A stretch of DNA of 64,000 bases from Escherichia coli. Lineage in GTDB: Bacteria > Pseudomonadota > Gammaproteobacteria > Enterobacterales > Enterobacteriaceae. The stretch lies in NCBI RefSeq assembly GCF_030013595.1, contig NZ_CP122768.1. One strand, given 5' to 3'. Below are positions 35,001-38,000 of the stretch, in pieces (positions within the stretch are counted from its first letter, which is position 1; each line of letters begins with the position of its first letter). Position numbers: made by a program.

Positions 35001-38000
35001 ATGCGCTGCGTAATGGCCGAGTCTGGCAACTGGCGATTATCTACCTGACCATTCAGGTGGCGGTTTACGGATTAATTTTCTTCCTGCCGACCCAGGTTGC
35101 TGCATTGCTGGGGACAAAAGTGGGCTTTACGGCGTCGGTGGTCACCGCCATTCCGTGGGTTGCGGCCTTGTTTGGGACCTGGCTTATTCCGCGCTATTCC
35201 GATAAAACCGGCGAACGGCGTAATGTCGCAGCGCTGACATTACTGGCGGCGGGCATTGGTATTGGTCTGTCCGGGCTGCTTTCTCCAGTACTGGCGATCG
35301 TAGCACTGTGTGTTGCAGCCATCGGGTTTATTGCCGTGCAGCCGGTGTTCTGGACGATGCCGACACAACTGCTTTCCGGTACGGCGCTGGCGGCGGGGAT
35401 TGGTTTTGTAAACCTGTTTGGTGCAGTGGGTGGGTTTATTGCCCCGATCCTGCGCGTGAAAGCAGAAACGTTGTTTGCCAGCGATGCGGCGGGATTACTG
35501 ACGCTGGCAGCGGTGGCGGTCATCGGTTCGCTGATTATTTTCACTCTGCGTGTAAATCGCACTGTTGCGCAGACCGACGTGGCACATCATTAATAGGTTA
35601 AGGAACACCATGAACGCATTATTAAGCAATCCTTTTAAAGAACGTTTACGCAAGGGCGAAGTGCAAATTGGTCTGTGGTTAAGCTCGACTACTTCTTATA
35701 TGGCAGAAATTGCCGCCACTTCCGGTTATGACTGGTTACTGATTGACGGGGAGCACGCGCCAAACACCATTCAGGATCTTTATCACCAGCTACAGGCGGT
35801 AGCGCCCTATGCCAGCCAACCCGTGATCCGTCCGGTGGAAGGTAGTAAACCGCTGATTAAACAAGTCCTGGATATTGGCGCGCAAACTCTACTGATCCCG
35901 ATGGTCGATACTGCCGATCAGGCACGTCAGGTGGTGTCTGCCACGCGCTATCCTCCCTACGGTGAGCGTGGTGTCGGGGCCAGTGTGGCACGGGCTGCGC
36001 GCTGGGGACGCATTGAGAATTACATGGCGCAAGTCAACGATTCGCTTTGTCTGTTGGTGCAGGTGGAAAGTAAAACAGCACTGGATAACCTGGACGAAAT
36101 CCTCGACGTCGAAGGGATTGACGGCGTGTTTATTGGACCTGCGGATCTTTCTGCCTCGTTGGGCTACCCGGATAACGCCGGGCACCCGGAAGTGCAGCGA
36201 ATTATTGAAACCAGTATTCGGCGGATCCGTGCTGCGGGTAAAGCGGCTGGTTTTCTGGCTGTGGCTCCTGATATGGCGCAGCAATGCCTGGCGTGGGGAG
36301 CGAACTTTGTCGCTGTTGGCGTTGACACGATGCTCTACAGCGATGCCCTGGATCAACGACTGGCGATGTTTAAATCAGGCAAAAATGGGCCACGCATAAA
36401 AGGTAGTTATTGATATCAAAGGCCCATGGGGATCGGCTGTGGGCCTGTGTTAATTAGTGGTTATTCGCTGCCAGATCGGCTTCGCTTAGCTGGGTGGCCG
36501 CGAGCACCAGGTCACGATCAATGCCCTGTTCCAGCATGCGCAAGGCAATTTTAATGGCTTGTTCACGCATACCTTCCTGCAAACCTTCTAATTTACCCTC
36601 CTGCCAGCCTTCAAGCTTACCTTCCTGCCAGCCAATCTGATGCCCTTCCTGCCTCAGCCGTTCAGCAATAGTCATCAATCTCTCCTTTTAATGACAGTTC
36701 GGAATATCAGCATCAGTGAGTTGGGTTGTCGCCAGCACAATCTCACGTTCAAAGCCCTGCTCCAGCATGCGCAAGGCAATTTTAATGGCTTGTTCATGCA
36801 TGCCTTCCTGCAAACCTTCTAATTTCCCCTCCTGCCAACCTTCAATTTTACCTTCCTGCCAGCCTTCAATCTTACCTTCCTGCCAGCCAATTTGATGCCC
36901 TTCCTGCCGCAGCCGCTCAGCAATAGTCATCAATCTCTCCTTTTGTAGTGGTGAACGTTCGGCAATCTCCTGAATAAAACGGGTGAAACGGGAGGTATCG
37001 CCGCATTGCAGCAGATAATTAAACAGCGTTTGTAGCTGGCTGTCATTAGTGAAGCCTCTAACCAAAAGCGTGGTGATCCTGTCGACCATACCGATTAAAT
37101 CGCGGTCGCGAATATGCTTTTGAATCAGTTCAAGCAGAGCTATACGCCGATGTTGCATGATCTCATCGTCAGGTACGATGGTGATATCCACCAACGGAAA
37201 AGCTTCGGTGTACAACTGCCGGGCAAGTTGCGGATCGTCAAACTCATCCAGCCAGTTGAGTGAGTACGGGTAGGGCGAGGTTTCGCCATGATAAAACAGC
37301 AATGGCACCACCAGCGGAACTCTGTCATAGCCTTTATCCAGGTGACGCTGCATGGCGGCAGTGGCATAGCGCATTAGCCGAAAAGCCATATTCTTTTCTG
37401 CAGAGCTTTGATGTTCAATCACGCAGTAGATATAGCCTTCACTGTCGCTGGTTTCCACAGACCACAAAACATCCGAGTAGTAAGCGCGTAAACTTTTTTC
37501 AATAAAGCTGGTGGGTTCCAGGCGTAAAGTTTGCAGGTTGCAAAGCTTGCGCAGCGGCTCTGGTAGATGTATTTCCAGAAAATCCCGAGCGGTTTCGGGT
37601 GTGAACATAAAGGTTTTAAACACCGCATCATGCGGGGAGGAGGTTGTTGATTCGGTCATGGTTGTCCGTCACCTGATATTTATGATGACGCGACATTACG
37701 GTTATCCCAGGCCTTTGACATCTGCCAGTTTCAGCCTTTGCGAGACGTTTTCAGAGGAATTTTCACTGCGTTGCAACGCATACATTGGGCACGGAATCGT
37801 GTACGCAAAAATGCCCGGTAACAACATGCTTACCGGGCATCAGAAAGGAGTTTAAGCCAGCGCCTGGGCCAGCAGCGTAATCGGATGTTCGCAGCGAAGA
37901 CTTGTGGACATCTCAATCTGCCATTTGCAGGTTTCGCAGTCGGTAACCACCAGATCTGCGCCGCTTTCTTCTATCTGACGGAACAGTGGTGCGCCGATGG

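Follow-up and report, generated by a model that had tools for sequence, protein, structure and literature searches.

A nested in-frame small protein of the Escherichia coli gene rpnE, its free-standing duplicate ypaA, and a proposed antitoxin role by analogy

How can one gene encode, in a single reading frame, both a nuclease-like protein and a small protein identical to its C-terminal domain, and what may the small protein do to the large one? This question is raised by the gene rpnE (yfaD) of Escherichia coli in a stretch of 64,000 nucleotides (nt; GCF_030013595.1, contig NZ_CP122768.1), which is referred to here as the window and in whose positions all coordinates are given. Within rpnE, an internal Shine-Dalgarno sequence (SD) stands in front of an in-frame ATG, the two forming a candidate internal translation initiation site (iTIS). 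We hold it to be very probable that the iTIS of rpnE makes a small protein, RpnE-S, which by analogy with other Rpn systems would inhibit the full-length protein RpnE-L, and that the neighbouring gene ypaA is a duplicate of the same S module. The nested small protein of rpnE is already published for this gene in K-12, in 2019 and 2023 (Meydan et al., 2019; Zhong et al., 2023); the present analysis adds a correction of the gene name, independent evidence for constraint at the DNA level, and a new allele, in which the repeat units number 7 and 5. Systems of this kind matter because the antitoxin is encoded in-frame within its own toxin gene, because a repeat tract tunes the pairing of the two proteins, and because of their role in phage defence.

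The internal start site of rpnE

The features of the gene and of its internal start site are as follows.

36688..37659, minus strand: rpnE (yfaD), full-length coding sequence of RpnE-L, 323 amino acids (aa), with a YhgA-like PD-(D/E)XK nuclease domain and a C-terminal RpnS domain
36937..36942, minus strand: internal Shine-Dalgarno sequence AAGGAG, codons K240-E241 of RpnE-L
36931..36936, minus strand: spacer AGATTG, 6 nt between AAGGAG and ATG
36928..36930, minus strand: internal initiation codon ATG, Met244 of RpnE-L and Met1 of RpnE-S; codon 244 of 323, in frame
36688..36930, minus strand: nested in-frame open reading frame (ORF) rpnE-S, from ATG 244 to the stop, 80 aa, 9169 Da (9.2 kDa), pI 4.8

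An earlier note on this DNA, made from the sequence alone, had pointed to CAA AAG GAG AGA TTG ATG on the minus strand, with AAGGAG lying 6 nt 5' of an in-frame ATG at 36928-36930 that begins the last 80 residues of the protein. This reading of the sequence is exact: the minus-strand context is CCA CTA CAA AAG GAG AGA TTG ATG ACT ATT GCT GAG, and the ORF from this ATG to the stop encodes 80 aa. The name that the note gave to the gene, rpnB, had to be replaced, since synteny, sequence identity and the NCBIfam model all identify it as rpnE (yfaD). The gene order in the window is glpC-rpnE-ypaA-yfaU, with glpC at 39117-37852 (minus strand) and yfaU/yfaV on the other side, and the counterpart in MG1655 is b2244 rpnE followed by b4543 ypaA; K-12 rpnB (yfcI, b2305) sits between yfcH and hisP, not at glpC-yfaU. 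The N-terminal 243 residues of the window protein share 97.9% identity with K-12 RpnE and 69.1% with K-12 RpnB, and the NCBIfam model NF007418 gives the window RpnE 721 bits at a cut-off of 583. An orthologue of rpnB (yfcI) is ruled out by the synteny, the identity of the N-terminal domain and the NF007418 score, the assignment of RpnB to YfcI and of RpnE to YfaD following the definition of Kingston et al. (PMC5350276). NF007418 carries the name "ISNCY family transposase", which is also the product name that PGAP puts on genes labelled rpnE; this annotation misleads, as does that of ypaA as a pseudogene. By domain content the protein belongs to the nuclease family, with Pfam PF04754 covering residues 8-209 (E 2.7e-87) and TIGR01784 scoring 176 bits (cut-off 52.1). 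Of 5,426 complete E. coli genomes, 5,420 carry the locus; the closest copy is 99.3% identical, so that the strain of the window is not itself part of that collection. A search of the PDB with full-length RpnE gave no match at E <= 0.01, and PADLOC v2, which is without a model for the Rpn system, returned "putative invertase" as its only match (0.0019).

The strength of the internal SD was scored by pairing the 15 nt upstream of a start codon against the 3' end of 16S rRNA, and the window was scanned through its 43 longest non-overlapping ORFs (52 kb), which hold 388 internal in-frame ATGs. The anti-SD duplex at the rpnE site reaches -8.7 kcal/mol, where the gene averages -1.8, and is the strongest at any of the 24 in-frame NTG codons. 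Just 3 of the 388 internal ATGs have a duplex of -8.7 kcal/mol or lower, one of these three being the true glpC start within an over-extended ORF, and the exact pattern AAGGAG-N4-9-ATG occurs among the 388 at the rpnE site alone. Moreover, of 200 dinucleotide shuffles of the 111 nt around the internal start, 199 fold more stably than the native sequence (z = +2.18), and this weak local RNA structure suggests an open, accessible initiation region. The internal SD and ATG of rpnE are more than chance. As the start codon itself, TTG (codon 243) was also considered and is out, because the codon is TTA at most of the sampled sites, K-12 rpnE included; its spacing from the SD would be 3 nt only.

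It could be objected that AAGGAG represents chance Lys-Glu codons or an SD-like pause site at which no internal initiation takes place: AAG GAG is an ordinary codon pair, and as an SD of similar strength precedes about 0.5-0.8% of the internal ATGs in the window, the significance for a single gene is modest. The wider Rpn family bears on this objection. We aligned 14 Rpn genes, namely the window gene, K-12 rpnA-E, seven plasmid-borne homologues (from Arsenophonus, Vibrio, Klebsiella, Yersinia, Pantoea and E. coli; 46-51% identity) and one from Leptospira (26%). At the position of Met244 the alignment shows ATG in every one of the 13 proteobacterial genes and GTG in the Leptospira gene, and GGAG, GAGG or AGGA is found 5-10 nt 5' of the aligned start in 14/14. 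The residues encoded at the SD vary (KE, GE, RE, EG, EE, GD, ED), the aligned peptides at the site being QKERLM, GGESMM, EKEKLM, HKESLM, HRERIM, HEGALM, HEERFM, HGDALM, HEDKLM and YEELTV. At the aligned site the anti-SD duplex ranges from -6.1 to -10.8 kcal/mol vs gene means near -1.8, and the site is the top in-frame start codon by SD in 10 of the 14 genes; all S products open with MT(I/L/V/T)A. Among E. coli alleles, the AAAAGGAGAGATT(A/G)ATGACTATTGC block is constant in 9/9 rpnE alleles (that of the window included) and in 6/6 ypaA copies, save for the synonymous exchange TTA/TTG. As the motif is kept although the encoded residues differ, the conservation is one at the level of the DNA, which speaks against chance Lys-Glu codons; judged from this alignment, the SD and start codon are under a family-wide constraint. 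A chance motif or pause site is, moreover, contradicted by the published initiation profiling and protein detection, and is in our judgement scarcely credible.

The published data concern the same gene in K-12. Using retapamulin-assisted ribosome profiling (Ribo-RET), Meydan et al. (2019; bioRxiv 10.1101/520783; Mol Cell) found in-frame iTIS peaks in 5/5 rpn genes; the internal product of rpnE (RpnE-C) was 98% identical to YpaA, and synonymous-site conservation was locally raised at the yfaD iTIS. With retapamulin and Onc112, both of which trap initiating ribosomes, peaks are reported at in-frame sites inside every rpn gene (PMC10400941; bioRxiv 10.1101/520783). Zhong et al. (PNAS 2023; PMC10400941) further report that chromosomal C-terminal sequential peptide affinity (SPA) tags in MG1655 allowed all five RpnS proteins, as well as YpaA (renamed RpnE-Ss), to be detected by immunoblot, and they cite differential RNA sequencing (dRNA-seq) start sites inside all rpn genes. 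According to the same paper, start-codon or SD mutagenesis combined with a C-terminal tag has already been applied to rpnA, rpnB, RpnP2 and a C. difficile rpn gene: the exchanges K240R, E241D and M244L together abolished RpnA-S, and SD/ATG mutation led to loss of the small protein of the C. difficile gene and was also used to abolish RpnB-S expression (PMC10400941). The proposal of the earlier note that the 3' end of the nuclease gene gives rise to a nested, in-frame small protein is thus published for rpnE in K-12, and the DNA-level conservation agrees with it.

The K-12 system resembles that of the window closely, having the same locus glpC-rpnE-ypaA-yfaU with the same layout of a downstream duplicate, and the same SD-spacer-ATG block save for TTA in place of the TTG of the window at codon 243. 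Outside the repeats described below, K-12 RpnE-S is 100% identical to the S domain of the window, while the N-terminal part of RpnE-L differs by five substitutions, one of which, Q230E, lies 14 residues before Met244. The two differ in the repeat units of RpnE-S/YpaA, which number 7/5 in the window (80/73 aa) and 1/2 in K-12 (56/61 aa). A further parallel is ArcB-C, from the same Ribo-RET study, where likewise a full-length protein is accompanied by a C-terminal fragment made from an internal SD and start codon; unlike ArcB-C, the fragment in the Rpn family bears hypervariable repeats and inhibits its own full-length protein in a dominant-negative manner, as an antitoxin.

The repeat tract and the downstream duplicate ypaA

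Three further features concern the repeats and the duplicate.

36802..36885, minus strand: four-amino-acid repeat tract of rpnE-S, 7 units, hypervariable; period 24/12 at 36803-36885 by Tandem Repeats Finder
36682..36687, minus strand: Shine-Dalgarno sequence AAGGAG of ypaA, directly after the rpnE stop TAA (36690-36688)
36454..36675, minus strand: ypaA (rpnE-Ss), 73 aa, 5 repeat units (36571-36630), free-standing duplicate of the rpnE-S module

The S region begins with 15 conserved residues, and the repeats start from residue 16 of RpnE-S; in RpnS proteins four-residue repeats are reported to start 8-20 residues past the initiator Met of the S protein, their number differing from strain to strain (PMC10400941). 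Two-copy alleles of rpnE-S have 1, 6, 7 or 9 units (K-12 has 1), and single-copy alleles have 1 or 3. An AlphaFold2 model of RpnE-S of moderate confidence (predicted local distance difference test, pLDDT, 71) shows one long helix of residues 3-57 that takes in the repeats. With this model, the top PDB match in Foldseek is 7TH0, E. coli RpnA-S, with a probability of 0.99, a template modelling (TM) score of 0.75 (target) and a weak E of 0.2. A profile of the 14 S domains finds 7th0_A at E 4.7e-15, RpnA-S itself being part of that profile, and in pairwise BLASTP of RpnE-S and RpnA-S the alignment is limited to the first 13 residues. The S domain of RpnE is homologous to the helical bundle of RpnA-S. 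In the same profile search, designer pentatricopeptide repeat (PPR) and other helical-repeat proteins rank above 7TH0; these were rejected, as no single stretch passes the threshold and the scores are made up of many weak repeats. The repeat tract also draws sub-threshold matches (E 1e-5 to 2e-8) to several NCBIfam models of FliH, a flagellar assembly protein, at RpnE residues 233-294 (about 36780-36960, minus strand).

For RpnA-S a crystal structure is available (PMC10400941; PDB 7TH0), and RpnA is an instructive relative of RpnE. Its iTIS falls at the same residue numbers, K240, E241 and M244, the two S proteins share their opening residues, and the RpnA-S domain is a helical dimerisation domain. 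On the other side of the comparison, RpnA-S measures 49 aa and is without repeats, and the S domains of RpnA and RpnE are only about 42% identical.

That the motif is kept in a duplicated copy, as the earlier note had stated, is borne out by the sequence: the AAGGAGAGATTGATGACTATTGC block recurs right behind the rpnE stop and opens a 73-aa ORF, and the same AAAAGGAGAGATTGATG / AAAAGGAGAGATTGATGACTATTGC stretch stands before ypaA as before rpnE-S. RefSeq/PGAP flags ypaA as a pseudogene or as a fragment that is "incomplete, missing N-terminus". The gene has its own SD, its own ATG and an intact ORF in 6/6 two-copy strains, and its comparison with rpnE-S gives a proportion of synonymous differences (pS) of 0.30 and of non-synonymous differences (pN) of 0.06, a ratio of 0.21, from which it follows that ypaA is not a decaying pseudogene. 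The number of repeat units in ypaA is 5 in the window and 1, 2 or 5 among the sampled strains. Within each genome the repeat numbers of rpnE-S and ypaA are unequal (7/5, 1/2, 7/5, 9/5, 6/1 and 6/2), which holds for 6/6 two-copy strains, a small sample with no null model behind the inequality. For RpnC it is reported that the L protein is neutralised only by an S protein with a matching repeat number (PMC10400941). Since the numbers are unequal here, YpaA would, by the RpnC rule, not pair with RpnE-L.

The duplication that gave rise to ypaA starts at the SD, with a weaker similarity extending about 20 nt farther 5' (ATTGCCGAACGTTCA vs ATATTCCGAACTGTCA). The 3' codons of rpnE, GAT ATT CCG AAC TGT CAT TAA (36676-36720, minus strand), resemble the pre-SD codons GAG ATT GCC GAA CGT TCA CCA CTA CAA. 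From this resemblance, the present rpnE stop appears to lie inside a degenerate second copy of the segment that precedes the iTIS and would mark the joint of the tandem duplication. In two sampled E. coli strains a separate ypaA is missing, and their one rpnE ends in a ypaA-type C-terminus; such single-gene strains represent a fusion or the ancestral form and fit the deletion/fusion events described by Zhong et al. (PMC10400941). In one further sampled strain an IS2 element lies within rpnE, and the 3' part with the iTIS is kept downstream.

Proposed function of RpnE-S

In the mechanism that we propose, ribosomes would bind AAGGAG at Lys240-Glu241 and start at Met244 of rpnE, one of the five E. 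coli Rpn genes, probably mainly on a shorter transcript begun inside the gene, as the published K-12 data indicate. The predicted product, RpnE-S, is helical, counts 80 aa and has the same sequence as the C-terminal domain of RpnE-L. By analogy with RpnA, RpnB, RpnC and RpnP2, it would bind the matching C-terminal helix of RpnE-L and hold the PD-(D/E)XK nuclease inactive, and which S and L proteins pair would depend on how many four-residue repeats the long helix holds. The locus would then be a gene-within-gene toxin-antitoxin pair of a kind implicated in phage defence, and ypaA would be a tandem duplicate of the S module, SD and ATG included.

The analogy draws on the work of Zhong et al., who report that RpnA-L, RpnB-L and RpnP2-L are toxic and that toxicity, SOS induction or cleavage of DNA is prevented by the cognate S protein, that RpnS acted only on its own RpnL in a test of RpnA and RpnB, and that RpnP2 gives protection against phage (PMC10400941). 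Antitoxin activity is reported for RpnA-S, RpnB-S, RpnC-S and RpnP2-S (PMC10400941; PMC10400984), and the concept has been summed up in a commentary by Koonin (PMC10400984). As in classical type II toxin-antitoxin modules, a small protein binds and neutralises a toxic enzyme, and RpnS proteins are helical and related to helix-turn-helix (HTH) domains, as are many antitoxins (PMC10400941). Unlike in type II modules, the Rpn antitoxin sits in-frame inside the toxin gene and not in an adjacent cistron; ypaA adds a copy in a separate cistron.

Several points weigh against this reading. The published work was done in MG1655, whereas the window strain is about 95% identical to it at the locus and has 7 repeat units instead of 1. 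No convincing sigma-70 consensus promoter was seen within the gene, either in a scan of 36300-37900 or in a relaxed scan, the latter yielding weak candidates only, such as TTGAAC-17-AAGAAT at 37418-37390; for an internal transcript, the dRNA-seq statement cited above is therefore the sole basis. The main text of PMC10400941 describes no SD/ATG mutagenesis of rpnE itself. Finally, none of the assays of Kingston et al. (PMC5350276) showed activity or toxicity of RpnE, and RefSeq names it "inactive recombination-promoting nuclease-like protein". In view of these assays and this name, the antitoxin role of RpnE-S is extrapolated from its paralogues.

The point on mutagenesis would leave room for a small product that arises by proteolysis of full-length RpnE, with the SD and ATG being incidental. 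This is very improbable, as initiation-trapping profiling places peaks at the internal sites of all rpn genes and as SD/ATG mutations remove the small protein in rpnA and in the C. difficile rpn gene and were used likewise for RpnB-S (PMC10400941). In addition, the start codon and SD are kept at the DNA level in distant homologues, and ypaA has the same SD and ATG without the upstream coding sequence.

The two points on activity lead to the only serious alternative, which is about function: RpnE-S would be made from the internal start, yet would not be an antitoxin of RpnE-L. In this view RpnE-L would be a relic that is silent in catalysis, and other roles would fall to RpnE-S and YpaA, for example as HTH-like regulators, or in trans on Rpn paralogues or on a phage factor. 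The absence of a recombination, toxicity or SOS phenotype of RpnE (PMC5350276) and its RefSeq name fit this explanation, as do the purifying selection on the second copy ypaA and its unequal repeat numbers, a mismatch of which abolishes neutralisation in the case of RpnC (PMC10400941). However, all six residues mutated in RpnA (D11, D63, E82, Q84, R94 and D165 of the PDDE motif; PMC5350276) are kept in RpnE of the window and of K-12, and the N-terminal domain, compared between the window and K-12, has a pN/pS of 0.08, indicating strong purifying selection. Furthermore, the Kingston constructs kept the iTIS, so that co-expressed RpnE-S could mask toxicity, a confound flagged in general terms in PMC10400941, and in the RpnA/RpnB test RpnS was specific for its own RpnL. 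This alternative is unlikely in our view. RpnE also differs from RpnA in that RpnA-L is a demonstrated toxic nuclease, inhibited in vitro by RpnA-S, whereas RpnE-L is without demonstrated activity.

With the residues mutated in RpnA all intact and strong purifying selection on the N-terminal domain, RpnE is possibly masked rather than inactive. We put forward, tentatively, that efficient masking by the co-encoded RpnE-S could account for the missing phenotype in the 2017 assays, that removal of the iTIS would unmask toxicity, and that YpaA, given its unequal repeat number in 6/6 two-copy strains, is perhaps not a redundant antitoxin but a distinct partner. As such a partner YpaA could serve, for example, as a donor cassette when repeat numbers are switched through gene conversion, or as a decoy that a phage factor binds.

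Other features of the window

One feature lies directly beside ypaA.

36420..36446, no strand assigned: GC-rich hairpin between the convergent genes ypaA and yfaU, 10-bp stem with 6 G-C pairs, from the terminator scan on the plus strand (yfaU side)

The same palindrome lies 8 nt past the ypaA stop and is kept in K-12, and the hairpin is a probable shared terminator of ypaA and yfaU.

In the scan of the 388 internal in-frame ATGs, the sole other non-trivial strong combination of SD and ATG lies in a major facilitator superfamily (MFS) transporter ORF (45699-46889, plus strand), where an in-frame ATG at codon 164 stands behind GGGAGG with an anti-SD duplex of -10.2 kcal/mol.

The window also contains a complete IS10 of 1329 bp (27195-28523). 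Both of its ends, outside and inside, are exact, and it has the 9-bp target duplication GACATTGCT. It encodes a transposase of 402 aa of the IS4 family (27302-28510, plus strand) and the RNA-OUT antisense RNA (RF00240, 98.8 bits, 27240-27309, minus strand). The element sits 4 nt 5' of the arnB start (ATG 27190-27188, minus strand) and parts arnB-arnC from an upstream region with a GGAAGGA SD-like motif and an ais/pmrG-like gene (28779-29438). RNA-OUT faces the outside end and with it arnB, so this IS10 could silence the L-Ara4N (polymyxin resistance) operon or rewire it.

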